Source: an uncultured Gammaproteobacteria bacterium (GTDB lineage Bacteria > Patescibacteriota > Patescibacteriia > Magasanikbacterales > UBA922). From it: a stretch of 64,000 nt of DNA. The notes under the pieces are model-generated. The model was not told the DNA's origin and made no database searches. It saw only the letters and a list, made by a program, of their open reading frames with translations. The DNA is taken from NCBI GenBank assembly GCA_964522435.1, contig CAZFUL010000003.1, positions 57,542 to 121,541 on the forward strand, given 5' to 3'. Positions 2,989 through 61,960 of the stretch are shown here, in pieces (the stretch's first letter is position 1; the number at the start of each line of letters is the position of its first letter). The position numbers were made by a program, and so were the translations under genes.

Positions 2989-4026
2989 ATGCGATCTGCG
3001 GTATCTTATTTTTTATTTTTTGCTCTATTAAGCAATTTTTTTCTTCCTCAGCTGGTTCGCGCTAATATGACAGGCGGGGGGTTTGCTATTTATGCGGATT
3101 CGTTTTCTATTGTGAGTGATGAATATACAACTGGGGGTAACTTTGGATTATTTGGAACGGCGGGAGAATTTGGTGCGGGCATTATTCAAAGTCCTATTCA
3201 AGGAAGTATTGTTCAGGTAGATGAATATATTGCTCACTCGAATTTAACCCATGAAATAACTATAGGTGATGGAGTTGTTACAACTACCTTTGCTCTTCGC
3301 AATGGTGCAGGATTATTAAATGGCCAACTATTAGATGGTGTCGGGCCGGAGATTGTTATTGATTGGGGTGGAGCAGCATCAACGAATCAAGGACTATTGT
3401 CTGATAGAATTGCTCAGGCAATTAATGCCGAAACGCATAATCTTGCAATATATGCGCAAAGTGATGGGGTAGACAGTGTTTTTCTTACCAACATTCGAAC
3501 AGAGGGGGCTCAAGCCGTTGCTATTGTAGAAAACATTACCGAAGATGCCATGACTTTTTCAGGCATGTCTCAAAATGGGACACGTTCCTTACGTGGTGGG
3601 TTTCAGGCTATGGAATTAGGCGCAGTTTCTCTTACCTTTAATACCACTACGGTTAATTTATCAGATTTAACGCTTCTAAGTGTTGCGAGTTCGTCTATCA
3701 CTGCAACCGTTACGTCAGATGGGGGGTATGTATTAAGCGCTCAAGAAGATGGGAATTTACGTACGGGTATTCATGATATCGATGATGTTATTGGGGGCGC
3801 CGTTGTTGCAGGAACAGAAGGTTATGGGATACGCACGAGTGGTGATGATGGCCAACAAAATGGCGCCGATGTTGCGTTAACGGGGATTGATCTTACGATT
3901 GCGAGTAATATAGGATCTGTCGTTGGAGAAGATACGATCATTGATTTTCGAGCAGCGATCGATCAAGACAGTATTGGCGGAGACTACAGTCATATTGTTA
4001 CCTTTACTATTACTTCATCATTATGA
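2989..4026 (+). CDS. Secreted hypothetical protein (signal peptide; Gly/Thr/Ser-rich beta-type sequence)
   Basis: 345 aa; N-terminal hydrophobic signal MRSAVSYFLFFALLSNFFLPQLVRA; first gene of a 4-gene plus-strand envelope cluster; stop overlaps next start (ATGA). Confidence 0.55.
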   Translation: MRSAVSYFLFFALLSNFFLPQLVRANMTGGGFAIYADSFSIVSDEYTTGGNFGLFGTAGEFGAGIIQSPIQGSIVQVDEYIAHSNLTHEITIGDGVVTTTFALRNGAGLLNGQLLDGVGPEIVIDWGGAASTNQGLLSDRIAQAINAETHNLAIYAQSDGVDSVFLTNIRTEGAQAVAIVENITEDAMTFSGMSQNGTRSLRGGFQAMELGAVSLTFNTTTVNLSDLTLLSVASSSITATVTSDGGYVLSAQEDGNLRTGIHDIDDVIGGAVVAGTEGYGIRTSGDDGQQNGADVALTGIDLTIASNIGSVVGEDTIIDFRAAIDQDSIGGDYSHIVTFTITSSL

Positions 4027-4877
4027 CCTTGCGTAGGATATATTCATTTTTTATAGCAGGAGTATTTCTTTTTGGATTTCCTCAAGCTTTGTTCGCCCTG
4101 ACCCTTGGTCCTTCTAAACAAACGATTGTGGTTGATCAAGGACAAACAGCCACTGCGAACATTTTTGTTCTCAATGATGGAGAGACTCCCCAAACATATA
4201 TTGGAGAAGTAGATGCCTTCGTTGCTTCTGCAGATGGGGTGACCCCGGTGTTTGGTCAGACGGATGAGGCAAAAAAATGGATATCTATTCAACCCGCTAC
4301 CCTTTCTTTGGACCCAGGAGAAAAAGGAATAATGACCTTTTCTATTTCTATTCCTCAAGGAACGGCCCCAGGCGCACATTATCTTGGATTATTTGCGCGG
4401 CAACAAGCGGCGGAAGGACAAGTAGGAATTGCCAGTCGAGCAGGATCGTTGTTGTTTTTATATGTATCTGGAGCTATTGAGGAAGAGTTGCAGCTACAAG
4501 AACTGAGTGTAGAAGGAAACTTTTTTTCAAAAGAACGAAAGCTTTTTGTACAAACAAAAAATTTGGGAAATATTCATATTATTCCTAAAGGAACAGTGAG
4601 TATAAAAAATATGTCGCAGACTTCCTTGTTTCAACGAGAGCTTAATCCTCACACAAAAAGCGTGTATGTGGGGCAGACCTGGAAATTTCAAGAAGATATG
4701 GTATTGCCAAGTGTACGAGCGATAGGAAAAAATAGCGCAGACCTGCAGGTTCACTATGGGGTATCTGAAAAAATAATAACGGGACAGGTATCATTTTGGT
4801 ATATACCGCTGTGGCTTTTTTATACCGTTGGTGCCATGATTATTGCTGTAAGTATCTTCTTTTTTCGCCGTCGATAA
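4023..4877 (+). CDS. Cell-surface protein: signal peptide, beta-rich ectodomain, C-terminal TM anchor with basic tail (DUF916/CscA-like architecture, inference)
   Basis: 284 aa; N-terminal signal (FIAGVFLFGFPQALFA), C-terminal WYIPLWLFYTVGAMIIAVSIFFFRRR; translationally coupled to upstream gene. Confidence 0.55.
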   Translation: MTLRRIYSFFIAGVFLFGFPQALFALTLGPSKQTIVVDQGQTATANIFVLNDGETPQTYIGEVDAFVASADGVTPVFGQTDEAKKWISIQPATLSLDPGEKGIMTFSISIPQGTAPGAHYLGLFARQQAAEGQVGIASRAGSLLFLYVSGAIEEELQLQELSVEGNFFSKERKLFVQTKNLGNIHIIPKGTVSIKNMSQTSLFQRELNPHTKSVYVGQTWKFQEDMVLPSVRAIGKNSADLQVHYGVSEKIITGQVSFWYIPLWLFYTVGAMIIAVSIFFFRRR

Positions 4878-4883
4878 TACGCT

Positions 4884-7442
4884 ATGACTATTCGGAATCA
4901 ACTTGTATTTCTTTATGGCTGCATGACGGCCTGCTTTTTTTTGAGTAGTATTTTATGGTGGGTGAGTGTTGTTCGAGCACAAGATATTACGATAGATGTA
5001 ACGGTTCCCGCCATTTGTGGTAATGGCGTTCAAGAAGGAGCAGAAGAGTGTGATGAGGCTGATTTAAATGATCAAACTTGTGCTAATGAGGGATTCGCTG
5101 GTGGTGGCAATTTAGCCTGTCAGGTAGATTGTACCTTTGACACCAATGATTGTCGTGTTGGTGGTGGGGGTGGGGGCGGCGGAGGTGGTCCACAACTACC
5201 AGATCCTGAGCCGCAACCAGAACCCGAACCTCCGGTCCTACCTAATCCTGTATGTGGAGATGGTATAAAAGAAGGGGCAGAAGGTTGTGATGACGGAAAT
5301 CTTTTAGATACAGATTTTTGTAATTCCCAGTGCCAACCACGAGTCATTGTTTGTGGAAATGCATTAGTAGAAGTAGATGAACAATGTGACGATGGAAATG
5401 TGCAAAATGCAGATGGCTGTAGTAATCAATGTCGTGTTGAAGCACCGCTTGCTATTTGTGGTAATGGACAAATAGAGGCCGCAGAACAATGTGATGATGG
5501 GAATCTGCAAAATGCGGATGGCTGTAGTAATCAATGTACCATCGAGCTCCCGGCACCGATCTGTGGTAATCGTCAGATAGAACAAGGAGAACAATGTGAT
5601 GATGGAAATGCGCAAAACGCGGATGGGTGTAGTGATCAATGCCGGGTTGAAATTCCTGTTATTCCTCCTCAGGTGATTCCTCCTATCATTAACCCCCCAG
5701 TTGATCCTATTGCTGGTGGAGAAAATGGAGATGGCGGCGGGGGAGCGGATAGAGAACGAATAACTCTGGGACAAGTAGTATTTTGGATCGCAAATGGAGC
5801 TTTTGTGGTAACGCCCGATGAGCAACAACAGTTGCGAACAGTACAGGGGGATGCTCTTATTATTGGAATCCATGAGCATAATATTCCTCAAGCCGATGTT
5901 GCGCAAATTATCATTCGTGTGGGAGAAAAACAATTCGCGTTTACCTATTCTGCAACCGATGGTAGGTATTATGTCACTGTTCCTGTATCATCCGGTGTTG
6001 CCAATGCTACCGTAAGCATTACGTACAAAGAAGGAATGGAAGATCGTATCTCGTTTCGTATTCTTGGGGTACCGCTTGGCCGCATAATAGATGAAGAAAA
6101 AAATCCACTCTCTCAAGTGCGGGTTTCTCTTATCAATAATGAAACGCAACAGCTAGTAAATGTTGCCGTGGTTGGAGGGACAAATCCCTCTGTAACCGTT
6201 GCAGATGGGCAATATTATTTTCTTGTGCCTAATGGTCGCTATAGCTTGCGCATAGAAAAAGAAGGATTTCATATACGCAATACCCTCGCTTTTGTTGTGA
6301 ATGATCACATCATTAATCAAGAATATGTGTTAATAAAAAAACAGGAAACGATTTTAGAGGCTTTGGCAGGACTTGATGAGAATGCCCCTATTACTGAACG
6401 AGCAACCGTATTATCGCAAGCAATCGTAAATAATGTTCAAGAACAAAGCGCGTTAATTACTCAACAAATAACAGAACGTCTTGCCCTTGTTAATGACGTT
6501 GCGGATGATCCGCAAGTAGAAGAAACAGTAGAAATATTTGTAGCCCCGAGTGTTGTTGGGGTATCTGCGGCGATTATTGTTCCTTCCCTATGGTCGAGTA
6601 TTTTTCCCTTGTTGCGCTATATATTTTTACAACCACTTTTGTTATTGGGAAAACGTACCCGTCGAGAATGGGGTATTGTATACAACAGTTTAACAAAACT
6701 TCCTTTGGATTTGGCGGTTGTTCGTCTTATTGATGCCGCCACAGGTAAAGTAAAACAATCTCGCGTAACAGACACGCATGGACGATATTTATTTATTACT
6801 GAACCGGGGGAATATACGGTTGAAGTAGCAAAAGCAGGATTTACCTTTCCTTCTCAAATTATTCGTCATGTGCGCAATGATGGAAAATTTGTAGACGTAT
6901 ATCATGGAGAAACAATTCGGGTAGCATCTGATAATGTTACTATTACTCCCAATGTTCCACTTGATCCTGCCGGAGAAGTAAAAACACCCAAGAGAGTTGT
7001 TTGGGAGACACGATTGCGTATCCTGCAACAGACTATCTCGGTTTTTGGTATTCTCTTGGCGCTTATTTCTGTATATATTAGCCCAACGGTCTTTACGATT
7101 GGTTTTTTGATACTCCATATGGCGATGTATATTGGTTTCCGTGCATGGATTCAACCCAAACAGCCCAAAGGCTGGGGTATTGTATATAATGAAATCAATA
7201 AAGAACCAGTTTCTGGTGCGGTGGTACGACTCTTTACAAAAGAATATAATAAATTGGTCGCAACGCAAATAACGGATCGCAAAGGACGCTACGCGTTTTT
7301 AGTTGGTCCAAGTACGTATTATGTCACGTCACAAAAAACTGGATATGACAGAGTACAAACAGGAGAAATTGCTATCGACACCAACGAAGAACAATCGTTT
7401 TTAAAAGAAGATGTTCCTATGTCGCAGCATCCTAAGGAATAA
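4884..7442 (+). CDS. Large membrane/surface protein with five cysteine-rich repeats (CGNGxxExxExCDDGNxxNxDGCSxxC), Gly and Pro-Glu low-complexity linkers, three carboxypeptidase-regulatory-like domains and internal TM helices
   Basis: 852 aa; N-terminal TM; repeats at aa ~45-260 (Myxococcus-type cysteine-rich repeat, by memory); G11 run then PEPQPEPEPP; three GRY(x)F...G(x)Y beta-sandwich motifs each preceded by a hydrophobic helix. Confidence 0.7.
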   Translation: MTIRNQLVFLYGCMTACFFLSSILWWVSVVRAQDITIDVTVPAICGNGVQEGAEECDEADLNDQTCANEGFAGGGNLACQVDCTFDTNDCRVGGGGGGGGGGPQLPDPEPQPEPEPPVLPNPVCGDGIKEGAEGCDDGNLLDTDFCNSQCQPRVIVCGNALVEVDEQCDDGNVQNADGCSNQCRVEAPLAICGNGQIEAAEQCDDGNLQNADGCSNQCTIELPAPICGNRQIEQGEQCDDGNAQNADGCSDQCRVEIPVIPPQVIPPIINPPVDPIAGGENGDGGGGADRERITLGQVVFWIANGAFVVTPDEQQQLRTVQGDALIIGIHEHNIPQADVAQIIIRVGEKQFAFTYSATDGRYYVTVPVSSGVANATVSITYKEGMEDRISFRILGVPLGRIIDEEKNPLSQVRVSLINNETQQLVNVAVVGGTNPSVTVADGQYYFLVPNGRYSLRIEKEGFHIRNTLAFVVNDHIINQEYVLIKKQETILEALAGLDENAPITERATVLSQAIVNNVQEQSALITQQITERLALVNDVADDPQVEETVEIFVAPSVVGVSAAIIVPSLWSSIFPLLRYIFLQPLLLLGKRTRREWGIVYNSLTKLPLDLAVVRLIDAATGKVKQSRVTDTHGRYLFITEPGEYTVEVAKAGFTFPSQIIRHVRNDGKFVDVYHGETIRVASDNVTITPNVPLDPAGEVKTPKRVVWETRLRILQQTISVFGILLALISVYISPTVFTIGFLILHMAMYIGFRAWIQPKQPKGWGIVYNEINKEPVSGAVVRLFTKEYNKLVATQITDRKGRYAFLVGPSTYYVTSQKTGYDRVQTGEIAIDTNEEQSFLKEDVPMSQHPKE
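5352..5666 (+). repeat. Three tandem 105-bp direct repeats (each encoding one Cys-rich module) inside CDS 4884..7442; two degenerate copies upstream (~5010-5100, ~5252-5340)
   Basis: Repeat units start at 5352, 5457, 5562 (tgtggWaat...gatggNtgtagtaatcaatg), about 85-90% identity, in frame. Confidence 0.8.
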
Positions 7443-7463
7443 TAACTTTCAAGAACCACGAAC

Positions 7464-7490
7464 AGCCCCAAATAATTTGGGGTTGTTTTT
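7464..7490 (+). terminator. Rho-independent terminator after the Cys-rich repeat protein gene
   Basis: agCCCCAAATaatTTTGGGGttgttttt hairpin plus T-run 20 nt after stop. Confidence 0.7.
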
Positions 7491-7567: not shown

Positions 7568-10500
7568 ATGCGTTATCGTATTTTTATTGTGGGTATATTA
7601 GTACTTATTGGCGTGTTAGGCATTTTTTATAATAGTTATACACAAGGTTCTGCAATTATTATTTCCGAAATTGGCGCCAGCGAAGCAAGTGGACTTGAGT
7701 GGATAGAACTCTACAATAGGAGTAATGAGGCAATCGATGTGACTGATTGGATTTTTTTTGAAGCAGAGACAAATCATACCCTAACCCTGGTACAGGGAAC
7801 GAGCACGATTCAGGCGAAAGAATTTTTTGTTGTTGCACAAGATAGCACCCAGTTGCTTGAACGAGATGCATTATCCGGGATTACAGTATTTGATAGTGCC
7901 TGGGGGAGCTTAAACGAAAAAGGAGAATCTCTTGCAATAAAAGATCAAATCGGAAATATTGTTGAGCAATTTGTATATATCGCAAGTAGCAATTTTTCCT
8001 TAGAAAAAATAGATCTTGATGCATTTATCTATTCAGCAGAAAATTGGAAGGAACATCCCACTGGGCATTCTTTAGGAAAAGAAAATTATTGGAGTAGTGT
8101 ACCAACAGAAGATTTGCCGCCTGAAAACGAGGGAGAACCAGATGTTCAAGAACATGGGTTTATCCCTATTGTGATAAACGAAGTGGTATCAGATCCGGAG
8201 AGCGGTGGTGAATGGATAGAGTTACTGTCACTTGCTACGACAAGCGTGCAAGTAGCAAACTGGGAGATCTATGATAGTAGTGGAAAGATAGCTACCGTAT
8301 CAAGCACTCTTGAACCAGGATCTTTTTTTGTGGTGGAGCTTGCACGTTCTGTACTAAATAATACTGGTGACACGGTGATATTGCGGAATCATACTGGCAT
8401 AGAGGTGGAGCGTATCGTCTATGGGGTTGCGGATGGTGCCGTTGTTTCTGCGCCCCAAAAAGGCCAAAGTATTGCAAGAACGATGCCGGCTAGTGGCGAG
8501 TTTGTGATCACAACAACTATTACGAAAGGAGAAAAAAATAGTATCGTTTTTCCTGTACCTGAAGAAGGTTCTTCTCCACAAGAACCACCAGCTTCCCCGA
8601 GTAGCACACCAACCCCCACGGGTGTTATTGGTGATATTGTTATTAATGAATTGGTCTCTGATCCTGCTGATGACTCCGAAGAATTTATTGAATTATATAA
8701 TAGTACTCAGGCCACCGTGAGTATTGATGGCTGGTATATAGAAGATGGAAGTGAAGGTAAAACAGTATTGCAGGGGAATATTCCTGGGCAAGGATTTTTT
8801 GTCGTAGAAAAACCAAAAGGAAGTTTAAATAATGCCGGAGATTTAGTGCTGTTGTTTGATGCGTATCGAGATCAAATGGATAGTGTGGCGTATGGGAGTT
8901 GGGACGATGGAAATAAAGCAGATAATGCTCCGGTGGCAAAAGATCCACAATCCTTGTCGCGCAAATCCGATGGCAGTGACACGGATTATGACTATCATGA
9001 TTTTGTCATAACTGATGTGGTAACACCAGGAGAATCAAATCGTATTCATGAGAGCGGTATGCTTGGGCAAGGAATATATACAAAAGATCTTCGTATTTCA
9101 GAACTCTTTCCCAATCCCAAAGGAAGTGATACGGAACAGGAATTTATTGAACTGTTTAATTACGGAGAGATTCCTATTGCCTTACAAGGCTGGCAGATGG
9201 GGGATAACTCTAAAAAAATTTTTCGTTTTACAGACAACCACGAAATTCATCCCTTTTCATATCTCCTGTTGTATCGTTCTGAAACAGGCATTTCTTTGAA
9301 CAATTCTGGTACAGAAGAAGTACATGTATTTGCACCCAATGGAGAAATAATAGATTCGTTGCAATATAGCGGATCAGTAAAAGAGGAGAGTAGCTTTGCT
9401 CGATTTGGGGATACGAGAACTGACTGGACGACTCTTGCGACGCCAGGAAAAGAAAATGTGTTACAAGGACAAGCCGCGGCACCACAGATTGTTTTTCAAT
9501 CAATACCAGATGCCTTTGTCAATGAACCGATTTCTTTTGATGCGTCAGATACTATTGATGAGGATAGTGATAGCTTGTCTTTTTTTTGGGATCTGGGAGA
9601 CACGACAACCAGTAGTAACGAATCATTTATCCACCGCTATACCCAACCCGGAATATATACGATTCAATTAACGGTTCAAGACAGTGAAGCAAATAGTTCA
9701 ACGATGCAACGCATGATACGTATCAGTGATGTTATTGGGGCGACCGAACAGTTTGCTACGTCGTCGTATCATGCCCTGCGGATTACTGAGTTAGTCCCTA
9801 ATCCAGAAGGGACAGACGATACAGAGTTTATTGAATTATTTAATGCAGGATTTGTGGATATAGATATTTCAGATTTGTTTCTTGATGATGAAGATGGTGG
9901 TTCGAAGCCCTATCGCTTTCCTTCTGGTACGAGTATTGCGGCTCAATCATATCGGGTGTTTTCTCGTACTGAGACAAAATTAGCATTAAATAATACCGCA
10001 GACCATGTGCGTTTGTTGAGTAAAGAAAAAGATATATTATTAGATGTGGCATATGATGGAAGTGTGGAAGGGGCTGCATATGTCCTAGATGATGTCGGAA
10101 ATTGGGTATGGTCACAGCGTATTACTCCAGGAGAAATATCGTATGTTGAGGAATTGGATATCATATTATCTTCTACGAAAAAAAATAATAAAGAAAAAAT
10201 AGTTCTGTCCACCACGATTGCGGGGGCAAAACAACAAGATGTTGGAGATATGGTAGATGTGTATGGCGTTGTTGCCGTTGAACCAGGTGTCTTTGGGACG
10301 CAATATTTTTATATGGTTGATGAAGAACAACAAGCCATACAGGTGTATATGTATAAAAAAGATTTTCCCTCACTTTCTATTGGAGATGGCATGTATGTGC
10401 GAGGTGAATTGGCAATGACAAAAGGAGAGTGGAGAATAAAAACAAGTGACAAAGAAGATATTCGTGCACATGATCACCCGAATCTTGAGGATATTATGAC

Positions 10501-10948
10501 AGAAGACATTGCGCATATTAAAGAGGCGCAGATACAATTTGTTCGTATTGCTGGAGAGGTTACAGAAGCAAAGTCTTCGTATTTGTATGTGGATGATGGG
10601 ACGGATGAAATAAAAATATATCTAAAAAAAGGAGCAAACGTTCCTAAAAAGTTTGTCTCTGTGGGAGACCTTGTTGACGTTACGGGTATATTGATTACGA
10701 GTGGAGAAGAATTACAACTCTTACCCAGATCGTCAAAAGATATAATAAAAACCGGCGTTGTAGAAGAATCAATTATTGATAAAGGAATAGGAGATTCAGT
10801 GAACGAGGGAAGTGTTGCACAAACATATTTAACAGCAACTGCTGGAGGTATTAGTTCATTGCTACTCGGCATGTTAGCTAAAGTGCACGGCGCTACTATT
10901 TGGAGGAGAACAACGTACGTGCTAGAAAAAATTATTCGGCGTGCATAA
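7568..10948 (+). CDS. Giant membrane-anchored surface protein: N-terminal TM, five lamin-tail domains (LTD), one PKD domain, two C-terminal OB-fold-like domains, C-terminal hydrophobic segment
   Basis: 1126 aa; strong SD (aggagg) 8 nt upstream; LTD signatures IIISEIGASE...EWIELYN, IVINEVVSDPESGGEWIEL, IVINELVSDPADDSEEFIELYN, LRISELFPNPKGSDTEQEFIELFN, LRITELVPNPEGTDDTEFIELFN; PKD-like FFWDLGDTTTS...YTQPGIYTIQLTVQD; OB-like VDVYGVVAVEPG...QYFYMVDE and IAGEVTEAK...LYVDDGTDEIKIY; no nuclease catalytic motifs recognized. Confidence 0.75.
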   Translation: MRYRIFIVGILVLIGVLGIFYNSYTQGSAIIISEIGASEASGLEWIELYNRSNEAIDVTDWIFFEAETNHTLTLVQGTSTIQAKEFFVVAQDSTQLLERDALSGITVFDSAWGSLNEKGESLAIKDQIGNIVEQFVYIASSNFSLEKIDLDAFIYSAENWKEHPTGHSLGKENYWSSVPTEDLPPENEGEPDVQEHGFIPIVINEVVSDPESGGEWIELLSLATTSVQVANWEIYDSSGKIATVSSTLEPGSFFVVELARSVLNNTGDTVILRNHTGIEVERIVYGVADGAVVSAPQKGQSIARTMPASGEFVITTTITKGEKNSIVFPVPEEGSSPQEPPASPSSTPTPTGVIGDIVINELVSDPADDSEEFIELYNSTQATVSIDGWYIEDGSEGKTVLQGNIPGQGFFVVEKPKGSLNNAGDLVLLFDAYRDQMDSVAYGSWDDGNKADNAPVAKDPQSLSRKSDGSDTDYDYHDFVITDVVTPGESNRIHESGMLGQGIYTKDLRISELFPNPKGSDTEQEFIELFNYGEIPIALQGWQMGDNSKKIFRFTDNHEIHPFSYLLLYRSETGISLNNSGTEEVHVFAPNGEIIDSLQYSGSVKEESSFARFGDTRTDWTTLATPGKENVLQGQAAAPQIVFQSIPDAFVNEPISFDASDTIDEDSDSLSFFWDLGDTTTSSNESFIHRYTQPGIYTIQLTVQDSEANSSTMQRMIRISDVIGATEQFATSSYHALRITELVPNPEGTDDTEFIELFNAGFVDIDISDLFLDDEDGGSKPYRFPSGTSIAAQSYRVFSRTETKLALNNTADHVRLLSKEKDILLDVAYDGSVEGAAYVLDDVGNWVWSQRITPGEISYVEELDIILSSTKKNNKEKIVLSTTIAGAKQQDVGDMVDVYGVVAVEPGVFGTQYFYMVDEEQQAIQVYMYKKDFPSLSIGDGMYVRGELAMTKGEWRIKTSDKEDIRAHDHPNLEDIMTEDIAHIKEAQIQFVRIAGEVTEAKSSYLYVDDGTDEIKIYLKKGANVPKKFVSVGDLVDVTGILITSGEELQLLPRSSKDIIKTGVVEESIIDKGIGDSVNEGSVAQTYLTATAGGISSLLLGMLAKVHGATIWRRTTYVLEKIIRRA

Positions 10949-12707: not shown

Positions 12708-12722
12708 AAAATAGATAATAAA

Positions 12723-12748
12723 AAGCCCCGATTATATCGGGGCTTTTT
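12723..12748. terminator. Bidirectional rho-independent terminator (variant of the recurrent GC hairpin) between the antiporter gene and the tRNA-Pro end of the minus-strand tRNA operon
   Basis: aaaGCCCCGATtatATCGGGGCttttt, A-run and T-run on either side. Confidence 0.75.
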
Positions 12749-12749
12749 G

Positions 12750-12824
12750 TCGGAGTGATAGGACTCGAACCTACGACCTCATGGTCCCAAACCACGCGCT
12801 CTAGCCAACTGAGCTACACTCCGC
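12750..12824 (-). tRNA. tRNA-Pro (anticodon UGG)
   Basis: Reverse complement folds as cloverleaf: acceptor CGGAGUG/CACUCCG, anticodon stem CGUGG/CCAUG, loop UUUGGGA (UGG), T-loop GGTTCGAGTCC; CCA not encoded. Confidence 0.8.
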
Positions 12825-12912
12825 CTATGCCTTCGCTACGCTCAGGCTTCGGCGGACATGTCCGCTATTTATAATGAAGCTTCGCGTATAAGAAATTTTC
12901 TTAGCAAAGGAG

Positions 12913-12984
12913 TGCCGAGGGGCAGGATCGAACTGCCGACACGAGGATTTTCAGTCCTCTGCTCTACCACTGAGCTACCTCGGC
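12913..12984 (-). tRNA. tRNA-Phe (anticodon GAA)
   Basis: Reverse complement GCCGAGGTAGCTCAGTGGTAGAGCAGAGGACTGAAAATCCTCGTGTCGGCAGTTCGATCCTGCCCCTCGGCA; anticodon loop CUGAAAA; 7-bp acceptor stem. Confidence 0.85.
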
Positions 12985-13071
12985 CTTATAAAACAAGTAA
13001 CAGGTAACTTGTAACAGCTAACGTCTCGTCGGAGCTTGTTAATTGTTAAAAATTACCTGTTACTTGTTATT

Positions 13072-13147
13072 TGGTGGACCAGAGAGGATTCGAACCCCCT
13101 ACCTCCTCGGTGCAAACGAGGCGCTCTACCAAGTGAGCTACTGGCCC
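13072..13147 (-). tRNA. tRNA-Ala (anticodon UGC), CCA encoded
   Basis: Reverse complement GGGCCAGTAGCTCACTTGGTAGAGCGCCTCGTTTGCACCGAGGAGGTAGGGGGTTCGAATCCTCTCTGGTCCACCA; G3:U70 identity pair, anticodon loop UUUGCAC. Confidence 0.85.
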
Positions 13148-17095: not shown

Positions 17096-17167
17096 GCGGA
17101 TGTCGTATAATGGTTATTATCTCGGCCTTCCAAGCCGATGACGCCGGTTCGATTCCGGTCATCCGCT
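17096..17167 (+). tRNA. tRNA-Gly (anticodon UCC)
   Basis: GCGGATGTCGTATAATGGTTATTATCTCGGCCTTCCAAGCCGATGACGCCGGTTCGATTCCGGTCATCCGCT; anticodon loop CUUCCAA, U73 discriminator. Confidence 0.85.
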
Positions 17168-17256
17168 CTCGGTAGCAATAAACATTTAGCTATTGACAAT
17201 TGACGTGTTTTCAAAGATAGTGAGTTGGTAGTAGCTAAATGTTTATTGTTAGTTAT

Positions 17257-17329
17257 AGCGAGATAGAGCAATTGGCAGCTCGTCGGGCCCATAACCCGAA
17301 GGTTCCAGGTTCGAGTCCTGGTCTCGCAA
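17257..17329 (+). tRNA. Initiator tRNA-fMet (anticodon CAU) with C at position 33
   Basis: AGCGAGATAGAGCAATTGGCAGCTCGTCGGGCCCATAACCCGAAGGTTCCAGGTTCGAGTCCTGGTCTCGCAA; near-identical to the E. coli tRNA-fMet anticodon arm (TCGGGCTCATAACCCGA) including three consecutive G-C pairs; A1xA72 mismatch typical of bacterial initiators; loop is CCCATAA rather than CUCAUAA. Confidence 0.75.
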
Positions 17330-17340
17330 CAAAAGCCTAT

Positions 17341-17414
17341 GCGGTAATAGCTCAGCTGGCTAGAGCGCCTCCTTGCCAAGGAGGAGGTCGCCGGTTCGAA
17401 TCCGGTTTACCGCT
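17341..17414 (+). tRNA. tRNA-Gly (anticodon GCC)
   Basis: GCGGTAATAGCTCAGCTGGCTAGAGCGCCTCCTTGCCAAGGAGGAGGTCGCCGGTTCGAATCCGGTTTACCGCT; anticodon loop UUGCCAA. Confidence 0.85.
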
Positions 17415-19478: not shown

Positions 19479-19492
19479 TATTAATATAAAAA

Positions 19493-19521
19493 ACACCCCG
19501 ATTGAATCGGGGTGTTTTTTA
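19493..19521. terminator. Bidirectional terminator (recurrent CCCCGATTGAATCGGGG hairpin) between efp (+) and tkt (-)
   Basis: aaaACACCCCGATTGAATCGGGGTGTttttttat. Confidence 0.8.
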
Positions 19522-24080: not shown

Positions 24081-26927
24081 ATGGCCCTCACCAGTACTAT
24101 TACGCGTATTGTTAAAAGAAACGGTTCTGTTGTTCCGTTTGAACCGTCTAAAATTAGTGTTGCAATGGAAAAAGCGTTTATTGCCACACGGGGGAGTGTT
24201 GTTCCTGAAGAGCTGCATCGCTTGTTAGTGGCGGTGCTTGGTTTTGCGGAAAATCATTTTGGTGAAAATACGCCAACGGTGGAAGATCTTCAAAATATTG
24301 TTGAAAAAACCCTCATGGAAAACAATTATTTTGATGTGGCAAAACATTATATTATCTATCGCTACGAACACACCAAACAACGCGTAGAAAAAAAACAAGA
24401 AATGGTGAAAAAAATTGAGAGCGGTGGGTTGTATGTCATAAAAAGAAATGGTGATCGGGTGCCATTTTCCATGGAAAAATTGAAAAAAAGTATTCGCTAT
24501 TTTGTTACTGGATTTGAAGACGTGATTAATATCGATGTTATTGCAGAACACTGTCGCTTAGAATTGCATGAAGATATGCCAACAAGAGACATTACTCGTT
24601 CTCTTATTATGATCGTTCGTTCTCTCATAGAGCAAGATCCAGCATATGCTAAAGTAGCGGCACGATTATTACTTGATCAATTAAATAAAGATATTATTGG
24701 CAATGATGTTGTTGATTTTACCCAAAAAGATGCTCAGCTTCGTGCGGCTTTCCCAGAAGCTATTCGTAAAGGGGTTGCTTGTGGTCGCCTTGACCCACGC
24801 TTACTCGCTTTTGATTTATCTGCCCTTGCAAAAGAGTTAGTCTTTGAACGAGACGATGTCCTCGACTACATGGCCATGCAAACTTTAGCTGAACGCTATT
24901 TTGTTCAAGATCCTGTGAGTAAGGCAGTTTTTGAAAATCCTCAATTTTTTTGGATGCGTGTGGCTATGGGCTTGGCCTTGTCTGAAAAAAAACGAGAAGA
25001 ATGGTCAGTTTCGTTTTATCATGTTATGTCTGACATGAAATATACGCCTTCTACCCCAACGTTATTTCATGCGGGAACAACCCATCCTCAAATGAGTTCT
25101 TGCTACTTAAACACGGTAGAAGATTCATTAGATCATATTTTTAAAGTGTTTTCTGACAATGCGCAACTGTCTAAATGGTCTGGGGGTATTGGAACAGATT
25201 GGACAAATTTGCGTGGAACGGGTGCACTTATTCGTGGAACAGGGGTAGCTAGTCAAGGAACCGTCCCATTTTTGAAAATTGCCAATGACACGACCGTTGC
25301 TATTAACCGAAGTGGAAAACGACGTGGAGCAACCTGCGCGTATATGGAATTATGGCACTGGGATGTAGAAGACTTTTTGGAATTACGTAAAAACACTGGA
25401 GACGAACGACGCAGAACTCACGATATGGATACCGCGTTATGGATTCCAGATTTATTTATGGAACGTGTACGCACCAATGGTAAATGGACCTTATTTTCTC
25501 CAGAAGAAACACCAGAATTACATCATGTGTATGGACAAGAATTTGCTCGTCGATATGCAGAGTATGAAGAAAAAGCAGCAGCGGGAGAAATTACTTTATC
25601 AAAAACCTTAGACGCAAAAGATTTGTGGAAAAAGATGGTGACCATGTTATTTGAAACAGGTCATCCATGGATGACCTGGAAAGATCCAAGTAATGTCCGT
25701 TCTCCACAAGATCATGTTGGTGTTGTCCATAACTCTAACTTGTGTACAGAAATTACCTTAAACACCTCAGCAGAAGAAACAGCGGTGTGTAATTTAGGCT
25801 CTGTAAATTTTGCGAGTCATGTGGTTAATGGTGTGTTTGATCACGCTCTCGTACAACAAACCGTTCGTCTTGCGATGCGCATGCTTGATAATGTCATTGA
25901 TTTAAACTTTTACCCAACAAAAGAAGCGTTGTCCTCGAACATGCGGCACCGTCCGGTTGGCTTGGGTATCCTTGGATTTCAAGATGCCTTGTATAAGTTA
26001 GATATTCCTTTTGATAGTGAGGCAGCGGTTCGTTTTGCCGATACCAGTATGGAAATCGTTTCTTACTATGCAATTCTTGGATCATCTGAATTAGCAAAAG
26101 AACGAGGACGCTACCAAAGTTATCGTGGATCAAAATGGGATCGAAATCTCTTTCCTGTTGATACGATTGCGTTATTGGAACAAGAACGAGGAATGATGAT
26201 TAATGTTGATCGGAGTAGTACCATGGATTGGAGTATTGTTCGTGACCATGTTCGCCAATATGGGATGCGTAATTCTAACTGTATGGCTATTGCGCCAACA
26301 GCAACCATATCAACATTAAATGGGACAGTGCCAAGTATTGAACCTATTTACAAAAACATGTATGTAAAATCAAATCAGACAGGAGATTTTATTGTGGTGA
26401 ATGAATATTTAATTGCTGATTTGAAAAAGTTAGGGTTATGGGATTTTGAAATGCTTGGAAAAATTAAATACCATGATGGTTCTATTAAAGAAATTGCAGA
26501 AATTCCAGAAAAGATAAAAACAAAATATAAAGAAGCATTTGATGTTGATCCTCGTTGGGTTATTACGCAAGCCGCGTATCGTGGAAAATGGATTGACCAA
26601 AGTCAATCAGTGAACATTTTTTATGGGGGAAAGAGTGGAAAAGAAATTAGCGAGATATACATGTTCGCGTGGGAAATGGGGTTAAAAACAACCTATTATT
26701 TACGCAGTCTCGGTGCGTCACAAGTTGAAAAATCAACGGTTGATACCAAGCAATATGGATCAACACATGAACGAAAACAATTTTTTGATGCAGCTCCAGC
26801 AGCAGAACCGTTATCTGTTCCTTCTGTTACCCCTGTTATGGTGGCGACAAGTACTCCTGTCGCTGCAGTATCTGCTGACCTAAAATTATGCAAGATTACC
26901 GATCCCAGTTGTGAATCTTGCCAATAA
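24081..26927 (+). CDS. nrdA: Ribonucleoside-diphosphate reductase class Ia alpha subunit with two N-terminal ATP-cone domains
   Basis: 948 aa; ATP-cones VKRNGSVVPFEPSKI and VIKRNGDRVPFSMEKL; catalytic Cys/Asn/Glu region NLCTEI; C-terminal redox Cys pair CESCQ. Confidence 0.9.
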   Translation: MALTSTITRIVKRNGSVVPFEPSKISVAMEKAFIATRGSVVPEELHRLLVAVLGFAENHFGENTPTVEDLQNIVEKTLMENNYFDVAKHYIIYRYEHTKQRVEKKQEMVKKIESGGLYVIKRNGDRVPFSMEKLKKSIRYFVTGFEDVINIDVIAEHCRLELHEDMPTRDITRSLIMIVRSLIEQDPAYAKVAARLLLDQLNKDIIGNDVVDFTQKDAQLRAAFPEAIRKGVACGRLDPRLLAFDLSALAKELVFERDDVLDYMAMQTLAERYFVQDPVSKAVFENPQFFWMRVAMGLALSEKKREEWSVSFYHVMSDMKYTPSTPTLFHAGTTHPQMSSCYLNTVEDSLDHIFKVFSDNAQLSKWSGGIGTDWTNLRGTGALIRGTGVASQGTVPFLKIANDTTVAINRSGKRRGATCAYMELWHWDVEDFLELRKNTGDERRRTHDMDTALWIPDLFMERVRTNGKWTLFSPEETPELHHVYGQEFARRYAEYEEKAAAGEITLSKTLDAKDLWKKMVTMLFETGHPWMTWKDPSNVRSPQDHVGVVHNSNLCTEITLNTSAEETAVCNLGSVNFASHVVNGVFDHALVQQTVRLAMRMLDNVIDLNFYPTKEALSSNMRHRPVGLGILGFQDALYKLDIPFDSEAAVRFADTSMEIVSYYAILGSSELAKERGRYQSYRGSKWDRNLFPVDTIALLEQERGMMINVDRSSTMDWSIVRDHVRQYGMRNSNCMAIAPTATISTLNGTVPSIEPIYKNMYVKSNQTGDFIVVNEYLIADLKKLGLWDFEMLGKIKYHDGSIKEIAEIPEKIKTKYKEAFDVDPRWVITQAAYRGKWIDQSQSVNIFYGGKSGKEISEIYMFAWEMGLKTTYYLRSLGASQVEKSTVDTKQYGSTHERKQFFDAAPAAEPLSVPSVTPVMVATSTPVAAVSADLKLCKITDPSCESCQ

Positions 26928-27995: not shown

Positions 27996-28120
27996 TAAAA
28001 AAATAACAGGCATCGGACGTCAGACCTGCTTTACTTGGTAAATTGTGTCTGAGGTCTGATGCCTGGCTGCAAAGCAGGTTTCTCGTTCAAGCAGACCCTC
28101 CATGCTTGTCGTGTGGAAGA

Positions 28121-28146
28121 GCCCCGATTGTTTCGGGGTTTTTTTG
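28121..28146 (+). terminator. Rho-independent terminator after nrdB (variant of the recurrent GC hairpin)
   Basis: GCCCCGATTGtttCGGGGttttttt. Confidence 0.7.
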
Positions 28147-28967: not shown

Positions 28968-29053
28968 GCCCGGGTGGTGGAATGGTAGACACGAGGGACT
29001 TAAAATCCCTTGACCGTAAGGTCGTGCGGGTTCGATCCCCGCCCTGGGTACCA
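28968..29053 (+). tRNA. tRNA-Leu (anticodon UAA), long variable arm, CCA encoded
   Basis: GCCCGGGTGGTGGAATGGTAGACACGAGGGACTTAAAATCCCTTGACCGTAAGGTCGTGCGGGTTCGATCCCCGCCCTGGGTACCA; anticodon loop CUUAAAA. Confidence 0.8.
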
Positions 29054-31294: not shown

Positions 31295-33022
31295 ATGGGA
31301 ACAGGATTTAGTTCGATTGAAGACTTACTTGGTGCATCAAAAAAAACAGGGTCATCAGGAAAAGCACCAGCATATGGTAGTCCAGAAGATCTGTTTCACA
31401 AAAAGATGAAGCAAGTCTCTCAAAAAGAAAAAGAAGTTGAGGTGCAACGATCGGCTGCCCTTGTTTCTGTTCCGTATATTTCGTTAGAACATTTTCCGGT
31501 GAGCCATGAAGCCTTGCGTCAAATTCCAGAACAAGAGGCCCGAGACAAACAAGTGGTCTGTTTTTTTGCTACACCAGAAGAGTTTCGTTTAGGAGCCGTA
31601 TCTCCGACAGATGGGCAGGCAGATGAGCTCTTGCATGTTCTTGAAGAAAAAAATAACTCGCACGGAAAAATATATTCTATTTCTGAAGCCAGTTTGCAGC
31701 ATGTGTTGTTGTTATATAAAACGCTTCCTGTGGTACATGCAATTAGTAAAGACGTTTCGATTCAAGCATCCGAATTAGAGCAAGTACAAGCCTCGGTGAA
31801 TGATTTTTTGCAGTTTCAAGAACAATTACGCAAGAGTACGACAACAGATTTGCTCACCTTTATTATGGGGGCTGCGTTAAAGCTAGAAGCCTCTGATGTG
31901 CATATTGAAGCAGAAGAACAGCGGATTGTGTTGCGTTTTCGTATTGATGGTATTTTGCACGATGCGGCAAGTATTACTTCTGAGCAGTATAAAAAACTGG
32001 TTTCTCGGTTAAAATTACTGTCCTCATTAAAAATCAATATCACGGATAAACCGCAAGATGGACGCTTTACCGTAAAAACAAGTACGGGAGATATTGATAT
32101 TCGTGTTTCTCTTATTCCAACTATTTATGGAGAGAGTATTGTTATGCGTTTGTTGGTACAACGCCAAGAAGCCTATTCTTTTGAAGAGTTGGGTTTACGT
32201 GGGCAACAGCTTGACCGGTTAAAACGAGAGATGGATCGTCCCAATGGTATGATTATTACGACTGGGCCAACAGGGTCGGGGAAGACAACAACGTTATATG
32301 CCATGATGCATCAGTTAAATAAACCAGATGTTAAAATTATTACGCTCGAAGATCCAGTAGAATATAAAATGCCGGGCATTAACCAAAGTCAAATTGATAG
32401 GAGCAGTGATTATACATTTGCAAAAGGATTACGTTCATTATTACGCCAAGATCCTGATATTGCCATGGTGGGAGAAATTCGTGACTTAGAAACAGCTGAC
32501 ATTGCCATTCAGGCAGCATTAACAGGTCATTTAATGCTTTCTACGGTGCATACGAATGACGCTTTTGGGGCCATTGCTCGATTTTTATCTATGGGAGTAC
32601 AACCCTTTTTATTAGCCCCTGCATTAAACTGTGTGATTGGACAGCGCTTAGTTCGACGCTTGCGTGATGATTTGAAGCAACCAACGACCTTAACGGCAAG
32701 TCAACAAGAACGAGTGACGGCACTTATTGAAGATCTACCAGAACCTCTCCGTGCGGAAGTAAAAAATAGACCGCAAGTATTTTATTCTGTTCCAGAAGAA
32801 AATCCTCAAGGTGAGTTAGGATACCAAGGACGCTTAGGTATTTATGAGGTGTTTGTGGTTGATGATGACATTGAAGCTGCGATTAGTGCGGGAAACGTTG
32901 GAGAAGTCGATATTCGTCGTCTTGCAAAGAAACAAGGTACCATTACCATGGCGCAAGACGGTATATTAAAAGCGCTTGATGGCCTTACCTCTGTTGAAGA
33001 AGTCTTTCGTGTGATAGAATAG
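31295..33022 (+). CDS. pilB: Type IV pilus assembly / type II secretion ATPase (GspE/PilB family)
   Basis: 575 aa; N-terminal GspE_N-like region, Walker A TGPTGSGKTTT, Asp box LEDPVEY, Walker B/His box MVGEIRD...TGHLMLSTVHTN. Confidence 0.85.
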   Translation: MGTGFSSIEDLLGASKKTGSSGKAPAYGSPEDLFHKKMKQVSQKEKEVEVQRSAALVSVPYISLEHFPVSHEALRQIPEQEARDKQVVCFFATPEEFRLGAVSPTDGQADELLHVLEEKNNSHGKIYSISEASLQHVLLLYKTLPVVHAISKDVSIQASELEQVQASVNDFLQFQEQLRKSTTTDLLTFIMGAALKLEASDVHIEAEEQRIVLRFRIDGILHDAASITSEQYKKLVSRLKLLSSLKINITDKPQDGRFTVKTSTGDIDIRVSLIPTIYGESIVMRLLVQRQEAYSFEELGLRGQQLDRLKREMDRPNGMIITTGPTGSGKTTTLYAMMHQLNKPDVKIITLEDPVEYKMPGINQSQIDRSSDYTFAKGLRSLLRQDPDIAMVGEIRDLETADIAIQAALTGHLMLSTVHTNDAFGAIARFLSMGVQPFLLAPALNCVIGQRLVRRLRDDLKQPTTLTASQQERVTALIEDLPEPLRAEVKNRPQVFYSVPEENPQGELGYQGRLGIYEVFVVDDDIEAAISAGNVGEVDIRRLAKKQGTITMAQDGILKALDGLTSVEEVFRVIE

Positions 33023-36260: not shown

Positions 36261-36273
36261 CGTGTTGCTCTAT

Positions 36274-36305
36274 AAAAAAACCCCGATTGAATCGGGGTTT
36301 TTTAT
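36274..36305. terminator. Bidirectional terminator (recurrent CCCCGATTGAATCGGGG hairpin) between thrS (+) and hypothetical gene (-)
   Basis: aaaaaaaCCCCGATTGAATCGGGGttttttat. Confidence 0.8.
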
Positions 36306-36313
36306 CATATATG

Positions 36314-38098
36314 TTATTGCTGTACTGACATCGATTCAATAACCCAATTTCCTCCTTTTTTCGCAGCTACAACTTTATCTCCAACATGAACTAAATTAGG
36401 TACTTTTGCTATTGGTTGTAAAAGGTCATTATCATTGGTAATGTTACTACTTTCACGTACCACTTTTCTCGCAATAGCGATTGCTTCTTTAGGCGATACC
36501 TTATCTGCTTCTGCAATCGTACGAGCAAGTGCTTTAATAACACCCATTCCCTCTGCTTGTTCAAAAACAATAGTATATGCATCACTATGGTGTTTTTCAA
36601 TCCGTAATCCATCTACTGAGTAAATACCACGAATTCCTTTTTTTTCTGGAGCAGCAGCTTGTTGGGTTTTTTCAGAAACAGCTGAATCCTTTTCTCGTGT
36701 TGCTGTTTCAATGGTATGCTTAGGTTTTGATTGTTCCGCTGCAGTGGTTGTTTCTTGATGTCTCCCATCAATAGAATTGCTGTCTGGAGTTGCTCTGCCA
36801 GCTGTGAGTCCTAAAAATAATCCTACTGCTGTTAACCCTCTTCCAATTTTACCAAAGAATCCTTTTTTGGCTACTGGTGGGGTTGGAGTGACTACCGTTG
36901 CTACCGGAATAGCTGTTACCCTGACGGTAGGGTCAACACTTTTTGATTTTTTTTCTGGGGGAATGGTTGTGTCTTCTGGGGATGTACGCGCTATTTCTAC
37001 CACTGGGTGGAGTGATTTTTTTGGGCTAGGTGCTTGTCCTTCTTTAAATGCTGCAAATAGAACATCTAATTCCCTTGTATCATATTGCACTTGTATGTTT
37101 CCACGGTCTTGCTCTTGTTGATCTAAAAATCCGAGTAACATTCTTGGATCTTCTGATAGATGGTTTGTTATAAATTCTCTAAAATAATTGTTTACTCTAT
37201 AATACGAAAATAATTTTATATGCTCTGATCGTGCGGTTACGTCATTTTTTGATAGATCGAGTACATATAAACATGCTAATTTTGTGTCAGCGGCGGTGGT
37301 AGGGTTAAGTGCCAACACCATTTCTACTTTTTCAACTATTTCTCCATTTGTGTAATGAGGCATTAGTTCATTAACAATATCAGCCACTTGTGGATTACCC
37401 TTTGTTTCGTAACTTGGTGTATCAGCTGATAAATCCTTTTTAATTTTTTGGTTCAATTGTTCCAAGCTGTGGGTTTGGGTAACGTGATCTGTTGTTAATG
37501 CAAAATCGTCTGTTTCATAATCATCAACAGGAGGTGTTGCTGCTCTAATTGGTTCGATGCCAACGTTAATAATAGTAGATGAAGGCGCTTGTTCTGTTCC
37601 TCGAATTGTATCAACACCGATGGCGTGTATAACAGCGGCTGGTTTTTCTTCTTGTGTGGTTTCGCTTCTTTCAGTTTCTTGAAATTGTTCTTTAGAAAGA
37701 CGAATATGAATGCGGTTTATTTTTTTTGCGAGGGGGTTGAGTTTTTCTGGTGGCATTCTTTTCCAGGCAGTACCCTTAAATTCTTCTATACCAAGACCTA
37801 TAAGCGTATCCTTCCCATGTTGAAGAATATAGCCTTCTATTTCTTGTAAGAGATCCGCTTTTTCTTGATCTCTTTTTTTATACATTTCTGATAAATCTCG
37901 TGCAATAATATCTAAATCATTAGCTACTTTTTTTCGTTCAGCAGCTTGCTCGTCGATGTGGCTTAAAGCCTGTCTTATTTTGAGACCTTTTTCATTATCC
38001 CCTCTTACTTCTTTAGGATCAGGAATTTGAGTTGCCTTTTTTTTATCTACCAAGGGGTTACGTTGACCAGGTTCGTAAATGGGTGGTTTTTCTGGCAT
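36314..38098 (-). CDS. Hypothetical bitopic membrane protein: ~450-aa charged cytoplasmic region, one TM (GFFGKIGRGLTAVGLFLGLTAG), ~130-aa C-terminal ectodomain
   Basis: 594 aa; no recognizable catalytic motif; Pro/Thr-rich segment before the TM. Confidence 0.4.
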   Translation of the reverse strand: MPEKPPIYEPGQRNPLVDKKKATQIPDPKEVRGDNEKGLKIRQALSHIDEQAAERKKVANDLDIIARDLSEMYKKRDQEKADLLQEIEGYILQHGKDTLIGLGIEEFKGTAWKRMPPEKLNPLAKKINRIHIRLSKEQFQETERSETTQEEKPAAVIHAIGVDTIRGTEQAPSSTIINVGIEPIRAATPPVDDYETDDFALTTDHVTQTHSLEQLNQKIKKDLSADTPSYETKGNPQVADIVNELMPHYTNGEIVEKVEMVLALNPTTAADTKLACLYVLDLSKNDVTARSEHIKLFSYYRVNNYFREFITNHLSEDPRMLLGFLDQQEQDRGNIQVQYDTRELDVLFAAFKEGQAPSPKKSLHPVVEIARTSPEDTTIPPEKKSKSVDPTVRVTAIPVATVVTPTPPVAKKGFFGKIGRGLTAVGLFLGLTAGRATPDSNSIDGRHQETTTAAEQSKPKHTIETATREKDSAVSEKTQQAAAPEKKGIRGIYSVDGLRIEKHHSDAYTIVFEQAEGMGVIKALARTIAEADKVSPKEAIAIARKVVRESSNITNDNDLLQPIAKVPNLVHVGDKVVAAKKGGNWVIESMSVQQ

Positions 38099-61920: not shown

Positions 61921-61932
61921 GTATACAAATAA

Positions 61933-61960
61933 ACACCCCGATTGAATCGGGGTGTTTTGT
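61933..61960 (+). terminator. Rho-independent terminator (recurrent ACACCCCGATTGAATCGGGGTGT hairpin) after rplY
   Basis: aaACACCCCGATTGAATCGGGGTGTtttgtt. Confidence 0.8.

Follow-up and report, generated by a model that had tools for sequence, protein, structure and literature searches.

The 64-kb window analysed here (the whole stretch of 64,000 nucleotides, positions 57,542 to 121,541 of the forward strand of contig CAZFUL010000003.1, assembly GCA_964522435.1, from an uncultured bacterium placed by GTDB in the Magasanikbacterales, UBA922) contains a cysteine-rich repeat gene (4884–7442, plus strand) in which a G-rich tract is followed by tandem repeats. An original prediction described this region as hypervariable-looking and as a substrate for slipped-strand or recombinational copy-number change. 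However, the three 105-nucleotide (nt) units of the array are old duplicates held by selection at the protein level, and not homogenised substrates of recombination, because their synonymous sites are close to saturation, their codon sharing does not exceed that expected from conservation and codon bias, and the exact runs that they have in common do not exceed 21 nt. We therefore do not retain the description as hypervariable, since the units are 70–72% identical, with 1.1 to 2.4 synonymous substitutions per synonymous site (dS), and the G tract is interrupted. We consider it likely that the region corresponds to the conserved ectodomain of a surface protein, composed of old duplicates of the DUF4215 module, that its module number changes slowly, and that it is not a contingency locus.

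The gene consists of a single open reading frame (ORF) of 852 amino acids (aa), which encloses the glycine tract and all the units. Its N-terminal and repeat-containing parts are arranged as follows.

4884–7442, plus strand: cysteine-rich repeat gene, encoding an 852-aa membrane-anchored surface protein
4884–4979, plus strand: predicted signal peptide (aa 1–32), with a hydrophobic core at aa 7–30 in the hydropathy scan
5016–5153, plus strand: module 1 (aa 45–90), a six-Cys variant of DUF4215, with the family-invariant TVPAICGN motif ahead of it
5160–5189, plus strand: Gly10 tract, GGT GGT GGG GGT GGG GGC GGC GGA GGT GGT
5190–5252, plus strand: Pro/Glu-rich linker PQLPDPEPQPEPEPPVLPNPV, which with the Gly run makes up the putative hinge between module 1 and the array
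5253–5351, plus strand: module 2 (aa 124–156), a diverged DUF4215 unit of 99 nt
5352–5456, plus strand: module 3, 105 nt, the first unit of the original prediction
5457–5561, plus strand: module 4, 105 nt, its second unit
5562–5666, plus strand: module 5, 105 nt, its third unit
5667–5759, plus strand: second linker (aa 262–292), Pro-rich and Gly-rich, including GGENGDGGGGAD

The three in-frame units start exactly where they had been placed, at 5352, 5457 and 5562, and each spans 105 nt (35 aa). Tandem Repeats Finder independently reported a repeat at 5379–5651, with a period of 105, 2.6 copies, 76% matches and a score of 322. The 85–90% identity first attributed to the units was too high: whole-unit DNA identities are 72.4, 72.4 and 69.5%, and 24 of the 35 residues are identical at the protein level. 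Identity reaches 76–83% across the first 83 nt, and values of 87–93% are confined to a 54-nt core encoding EQCDDGNxQNADGCSxQC, with 29–58% in the 24-nt inter-module linker. Two modules had been omitted, one at 5253 (99-nt spacing, 60–63% identity to the other units) and the six-Cys variant at 5016; the array is composed of 1 + 4 modules, with unit spacings of 99, 105 and 105 nt.

Pairs of units differ at 29–32 positions, 12–16 of which are third codon positions. Nei–Gojobori estimates between units gave a proportion of synonymous differences (pS) of 0.59–0.72 and a dS of 1.1–2.4, with about 0.2 nonsynonymous substitutions per nonsynonymous site (dN). The same codon is used for 16–17 of the 24 identical residues, against 13 expected from the codon usage of the window (simulated P = 0.08–0.16), and the DNA similarity of the units is therefore attributable to fold conservation and codon bias; in this codon-sharing test, neither recent duplication nor gene conversion left a detectable signal in the units. 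Recombining repeats of surface proteins are close to 100% identical. Near-identical DNA units with long exact stretches, as expected of such repeats, were not observed here (69.5–72.4% identity, with longest exact runs of 21, 11 and 18 nt for the unit pairs). In Gram-positive surface proteins of the alpha C/Rib type, the repeats are almost identical in DNA, and their copy number varies between strains and during infection. The present protein has in common with them tandem in-frame domain repeats, anchoring at the surface and an ectodomain length set by repeat number, but its units are 70–72% identical, with saturated synonymous sites.

Some features of units 3–5 could nevertheless be read as a recent lineage-specific expansion, or as concerted evolution, in which these units would be young or gene-converted and the array still dynamic. 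They share the sequence QNADGCS(N/D)QC, where orthologues instead have QNGDGCS; they are alike at 21–22 of 28 aa among themselves, versus 16–21 of 28 when compared with the units of the related proteins P0002 or P0044; and their cores are 87–93% identical in DNA. However, the excess over the between-species identity of units amounts to 1–3 residues, the excess in codon sharing is not significant (P = 0.08–0.16), dS remains at roughly 1 or above when only the part from the first to the fourth cysteine (C1–C4) is considered, and the linkers between units are only 29–58% identical. We thus consider a recent expansion to be improbable. An error in repeat number, through the collapse or expansion of repeats during assembly, would be conceivable for a metagenome-derived contig of which there is no independent copy, but it is very hard to credit, because the units are so diverged: with no more than 21 identical bases in a row and about 30 of the 105 positions different, each unit is unique for the usual k-mer or read length. 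The reading frame is also intact across the array, and the spacing (99, 105 and 105 nt) is regular.

A target of a diversity-generating retroelement was considered as another candidate and rejected. No part of the region (5000–5700) recurs elsewhere in the 64-kb window, so there is no second copy in the window that could act as a template repeat; a reverse transcriptase was not specifically searched for.

A G-rich tract encoding poly-glycine and followed by PQLPDPEPQPEPEPP was confirmed by reading the sequence, although the run consists of ten glycines at 5160–5189 and not of eleven at 5158–5195. The tract employs all four glycine codons, and its G runs have lengths of 2, 2, 5, 5, 2, 2, 2 and 2, so that it is broken every 2–5 bases and its largest perfect repeat is TGGGGG, present twice. 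The tracts responsible for switching in bacterial phase variation are perfect homopolymers of about 7–8 bases or more, or several perfect short units, and the tract examined here contains neither. It is also unremarkable in its longest G run (5), as the window contains 44 G runs of at least 5, extending up to 7. This is relevant to the contingency-locus hypothesis, according to which the tract, the 105-nt array or both would often change in length, by slipped-strand mispairing or RecA-mediated unequal exchange, so that surface proteins differing in length would coexist in the population. The tract is indeed the most G-rich 30-mer of the window (the only 30-nt segment with at least 22 G) and contains short direct repeats (TGGGGG, CGG and GGT, each twice), but it is interrupted, with the four glycine codons mixed, and the diverged units of the array (70–72% identity, exact runs of at most 21 nt, saturated synonymous sites) show no sign of homogenisation.

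The length of the glycine run does vary between lineages. A Gly run and a Pro-rich stretch are found directly after module 1 in almost all members of the family, with runs of 2 to 10 residues, the longest being that of the present genome (10); in the syntenic orthologues of other Magasanikbacteria-like genomes, the runs comprise 3–5 residues. The hinge is therefore a conserved feature with a drifting length, given that it occupies the same place in nearly all members. This Gly/Pro stretch would act as a flexible hinge. The 2–10 range, with its maximum here, could also be cited in favour of a contingency locus.

Module number was counted with a hidden Markov model built from the modules, in 37 sequences sharing the same anchor motif. 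The syntenic orthologues contain 7 modules in P0002 (the closest, at 48% identity), 8 in both P0016 and P0004, and 1 in both P0022 and P0030, against 5 in the protein described here, and the counts across the 37 sequences include 1, 5, 7, 8, 9, 10 and 12. This variation is among the observations that would favour a contingency locus, as is the strain variation noted in large extracellular proteins of Peribacteria, some of them Cys-rich (PMC4736985). However, close pairs of orthologues keep their module number, and the orthologue clusters or pairs with at least 90% identity were all found to have equal numbers. P0006 and P0134 differ at many positions, yet each has ten modules, with no unit-sized insertion or deletion; in P0020/P0131/P0132 and P0013/P0135, the differences are confined to the called start codon; P0012 and P0121 are of equal length; and P0004 is identical in 6 assemblies, its cluster being without variants. 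Most of the length differences inside 90%-identity clusters correspond to alternative start codons or fragments rather than to changes in the repeats. The proposed change in length of the surface protein thus holds as a slow process, between distant lineages that differ in module count and Gly run, but is not supported as fast switching.

Two "fibro-slime" DUF4215 proteins from outside the window, P0079 and P0191, were placed in one 90%-identity cluster, although one of them lacks 65 aa, or exactly two modules, through a clean deletion between PEQCDDG motifs. This difference represents either a real change in copy number or a collapse in metagenome assembly. As a case from another DUF4215 family, it counts in favour of a contingency locus and lends some credit to the recombinational copy-number change first proposed; the units studied here show no sign of homogenisation. 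All things considered, we regard a contingency locus as quite improbable, and the site should not be counted as one, since the features on which rapid switching of repeats depends are missing from its DNA.

Several points weigh against our preferred reading of a conserved ectodomain with slowly changing module number. P0079/P0191 shows that DUF4215 arrays can change their copy number between close relatives, even if the difference could be an assembly artefact. The evidence for stability comes from only four pairs or clusters, some possibly originating from one population and none from the present species. The AlphaFold2 model of the repeat region is poor, with a mean predicted local distance difference test score (pLDDT) of 55. 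In addition, the role as a stalk or adhesin, the disulfide pattern and the cytoplasmic location of the transthyretin-like domains are points that we infer.

Scans of species-representative genomes and metagenome contigs identified only distant DUF4215 proteins, with 39–64% identity over parts of the repeat region, and in these searches there was no relative closer than 48% at the amino-acid level for the Cys-rich protein or 79% for GyrB. The loci L014 and L015, which have the same orthologue, are identical over 13 kb and were not counted as independent strains.

The anchor motif starts at residue 430–630 in most members of the family, whatever their module number (1 to 10), and in the one-module members the place of the other modules is taken by long spacers, acidic or proline-rich, or by an additional sandwich. 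What is constrained may therefore be the total length of the ectodomain.

The repeats clearly belong to the DUF4215/TIGR02232 family. The protein scored 81.9 bits with PF13948 (DUF4215; cut-off 27) and 141.2 bits with TIGR02232 ("cysteine-rich acidic repeat", the Myxococcus cysteine-rich repeat; cut-off 20.8, E = 6e-42), over four stretches in each case, and these matches are far beyond chance. Modules 2–5 keep the spacing C-x10-C-x10-C-x3-C, module 1 being the six-Cys variant; each four-Cys unit has the CDDGN...DGC core, and the copies lie in tandem after a predicted signal peptide. The motif CGNG-x-E-x-GE-x-CDDGN-x4-DGCS-x2-C, with its four cysteines, and the occurrence of tandem multi-copy arrays in secreted proteins are common to this protein and the family. 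Most of the described members are large myxobacterial proteins with far more copies and with fibro-slime or MYXO-CTERM as partner domains, whereas the protein studied here has only five modules, a Gly/Pro hinge and an anchor of three transmembrane (TM) segments and two transthyretin-like domains. Among the sequences compared, this architecture of hinge and three-TM/two-sandwich anchor was restricted to sequences from Magasanikbacteria-like and related Patescibacteria.

When the sequence of the repeat region was compared with solved structures, the search yielded, apart from a trivial poly-Gly match, only a possible resemblance to the start of the disintegrin domain of the human metalloprotease ADAM17 (PDB 2i47), which has in common with the module start (5352–5600) the motif CGN-x-x-V/I-E/D-x-GE-E/Q-CD; the match is marginal (E = 0.017, 18 bits) and covers the first half of one module only. 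A DUF4215 protein has been found among the adhesive trail proteins of diatoms (bioRxiv 10.1101/2023.03.06.531300). Closer to the present lineage, large Cys-rich extracellular proteins have been described from complete genomes of Peribacteria, members of the Candidate Phyla Radiation (CPR), with a proposed role in attachment and with strain variation (PMC4736985). The proteins of Candidatus Peribacter riflensis likewise possess a signal peptide, and their extracellular part is Cys-rich and resembles the Myxococcus cysteine-rich repeats (PMC4736985). However, they are much larger (mean 1,655 aa), are encoded in a 14-gene cluster and have a similarity to the repeat family described as very weak (PMC4736985), whereas the protein considered here, of 852 aa, falls clearly within the family and is encoded in a three-gene cassette adjoining rpsF-ssb-rpsR.

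Downstream from the second linker, the protein continues with a middle region and an anchor, as follows.

5760–6473, plus strand: Cys-free middle ectodomain (aa 293–530), with a CarboxypepD_reg-like beta-sandwich at about aa 419–482
6534–6608, plus strand: predicted TM segment 1 (aa 551–575), from hydropathy
6672–6968, plus strand: transthyretin-like (CarboxypepD_reg) beta-sandwich A
6990–7151, plus strand: helical hairpin, corresponding to predicted TM segments 2–3
7176–7421, plus strand: transthyretin-like (CarboxypepD_reg) beta-sandwich B

The surface location first proposed for this protein is in agreement with its predicted signal peptide, with the position of its 22 cysteines, all in the ectodomain, and with its C-terminal TM anchor. 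VRA|QD is the likely cleavage site of the signal peptide. All 22 cysteines are located within aa 45–255, N-terminal to the first TM segment, and the remaining 600 or so residues are Cys-free. From the predicted signal peptide and this placement of the cysteines, the five-module region is probably exported. TM segment 1 is flanked by acidic residues upstream and by KRTRRE downstream, which, by the positive-inside rule, suggests an N-out, C-in orientation; the helical hairpin (about aa 718–752) is flanked by basic residues. With this orientation the Cys-rich part would be extracellular and the two sandwiches may be cytoplasmic. The Cys-free middle ectodomain is also present in P0002, P0022, P0024, P0025, P0030 and P0044, and the complete 852-aa protein was found at 100% identity in an NCBI-derived protein collection (P0001, on a 139-kb contig). 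A minus-strand ORF (5364–5933, 189 aa, TTG start) was treated as spurious, because it sits inside this well-supported plus-strand gene.

The AlphaFold model of aa 510–852 (mean pLDDT 77, above 80 from residue 590) consists of a sandwich, a helical hairpin and a second sandwich, and among single domains of known structure it is best matched by the transthyretin-like domain of carboxypeptidase D (TM-score 0.82, root-mean-square deviation 2.0 Å). Foldseek searches with this C-terminal model identified nothing beyond generic transthyretin/CnaB-like sandwiches. The AlphaFold2 model of the repeat region (aa 33–299, alignment of 26 sequences) was unusable, with almost no secondary structure and a predicted template modelling score (pTM) of 0.20.

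From its N-terminus, the protein comprises a predicted signal peptide, the six-Cys head module, the Gly10 and Pro/Glu stretch, four tandem modules, the second linker, the Cys-free beta-sandwich region and the anchor. Each four-Cys module probably forms two disulfides, and the ectodomain could project from the membrane as an acidic stalk or adhesive array stiffened by these disulfides. Changes in module number would come from infrequent events of unequal recombination or deletion, over times comparable to the divergence of genera or families. Frequent slippage would not occur, and the locus would not switch phase or length as a contingency locus does.

The Cys-rich gene closes a cassette of three genes on the same strand, which includes the following additional features.

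2989–4026, plus strand: ORF-A, 345 aa, first gene of the cassette, predicted to be secreted from the hydrophobic leader at its N-terminus, and matching no Pfam or NCBIfam family
4023–4877, plus strand: ORF-B, 284 aa, with a leader, a beta-sandwich-like region and, at the C-terminus, a TM segment bearing an RRR tail
7460–7488, plus strand: terminator-like hairpin from a consensus scan, with a stem of 13 pairs and a T run behind it, located 18 nt past the stop codon

ORF-B overlaps ORF-A by 4 nt, and the Cys-rich gene begins 6 nt after ORF-B; the hairpin is the likely end of the three-gene transcription unit. The Pfam matches of ORF-B are weak (NPCBM_assoc, E = 0.007). Its orthologue in L014 came just short of the WxLIP_PGBD (PF06030) threshold, scoring 26.1 bits where 27.3 are required (E = 9.4e-6), and the ORF-B of the window itself had no PF06030 match, so that a link to WxL-type cell-surface gene clusters is no more than a lead. 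All the related loci examined, namely L011, L013, L014, L016 and L017, have the same gene order, in which rpsR-ssb-rpsF on the opposite strand (with no rpsR called in L013 and L017) is followed by ORF-A, ORF-B and the gene of the Cys-rich anchor protein. In related loci, a very large surface protein of varying domain content follows the cassette, either directly or past one small gene. In the window, the gene directly downstream (7568–10948, plus strand) encodes a protein of 1126 aa that combines five lamin-tail domains with a PKD domain and ends in an OB-fold.

The GyrB of the window (56540–58597, minus strand) has a best non-self match of 79%, and the named matches are overwhelmingly from Candidatus Magasanikbacteria (Patescibacteria/CPR). 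The association of the repeats with the three-TM, two-sandwich anchor and the three-gene cassette is not described in the literature searched; it does occur in public databases, under generic names such as "DUF4215 domain-containing protein". We tentatively put forward, as a rather speculative proposal, that the cassette could be an undescribed, lineage-wide surface apparatus of Magasanikbacteria-like CPR, perhaps involved in host attachment, in which ORF-B would be a WxLIP-like, membrane-anchored beta-sandwich and the hinge and the number of modules would tune the reach of the head module. The value of these observations is modest, in that they document the conservation of a surface-protein cassette in a CPR lineage that has not been cultured and whose members presumably live attached to other cells. 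The occurrence of the same anchor with one to ten Cys-rich modules provides a natural series for relating the length and composition of the ectodomain to attachment.

Other features of the window were recorded in the course of this analysis. Two long minus-strand ORFs, at 46507–48639 (710 aa) and 36314–38098 (594 aa), were without Pfam matches at E ≤ 1e-5. The large subunit of a ribonucleotide reductase, in which two ATP-cone stretches are present, is encoded at 24081–26927 (plus strand) and a type II/IV secretion ATPase (T2SSE) at 31295–33022 (plus strand). Six near-identical palindromic intergenic elements, AAAAA-CCCCGATTGAATCGGGG-TTTTT, are located at 1516–1546, 12717–12747, 19487–19517, 28113–28143, 36272–36302 and 61927–61957, and look like a bidirectional intrinsic terminator reused after unrelated genes; the terminator scan independently reported one of these copies (12720–12748). 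Three tRNA genes are grouped at 12750–13147 (minus strand) and three others at 17096–17414 (plus strand), about 4 kb apart, with a single gene at 28968–29050 (plus strand), and one inverted-repeat pair of the window (I1) corresponds to two of these tRNAs.

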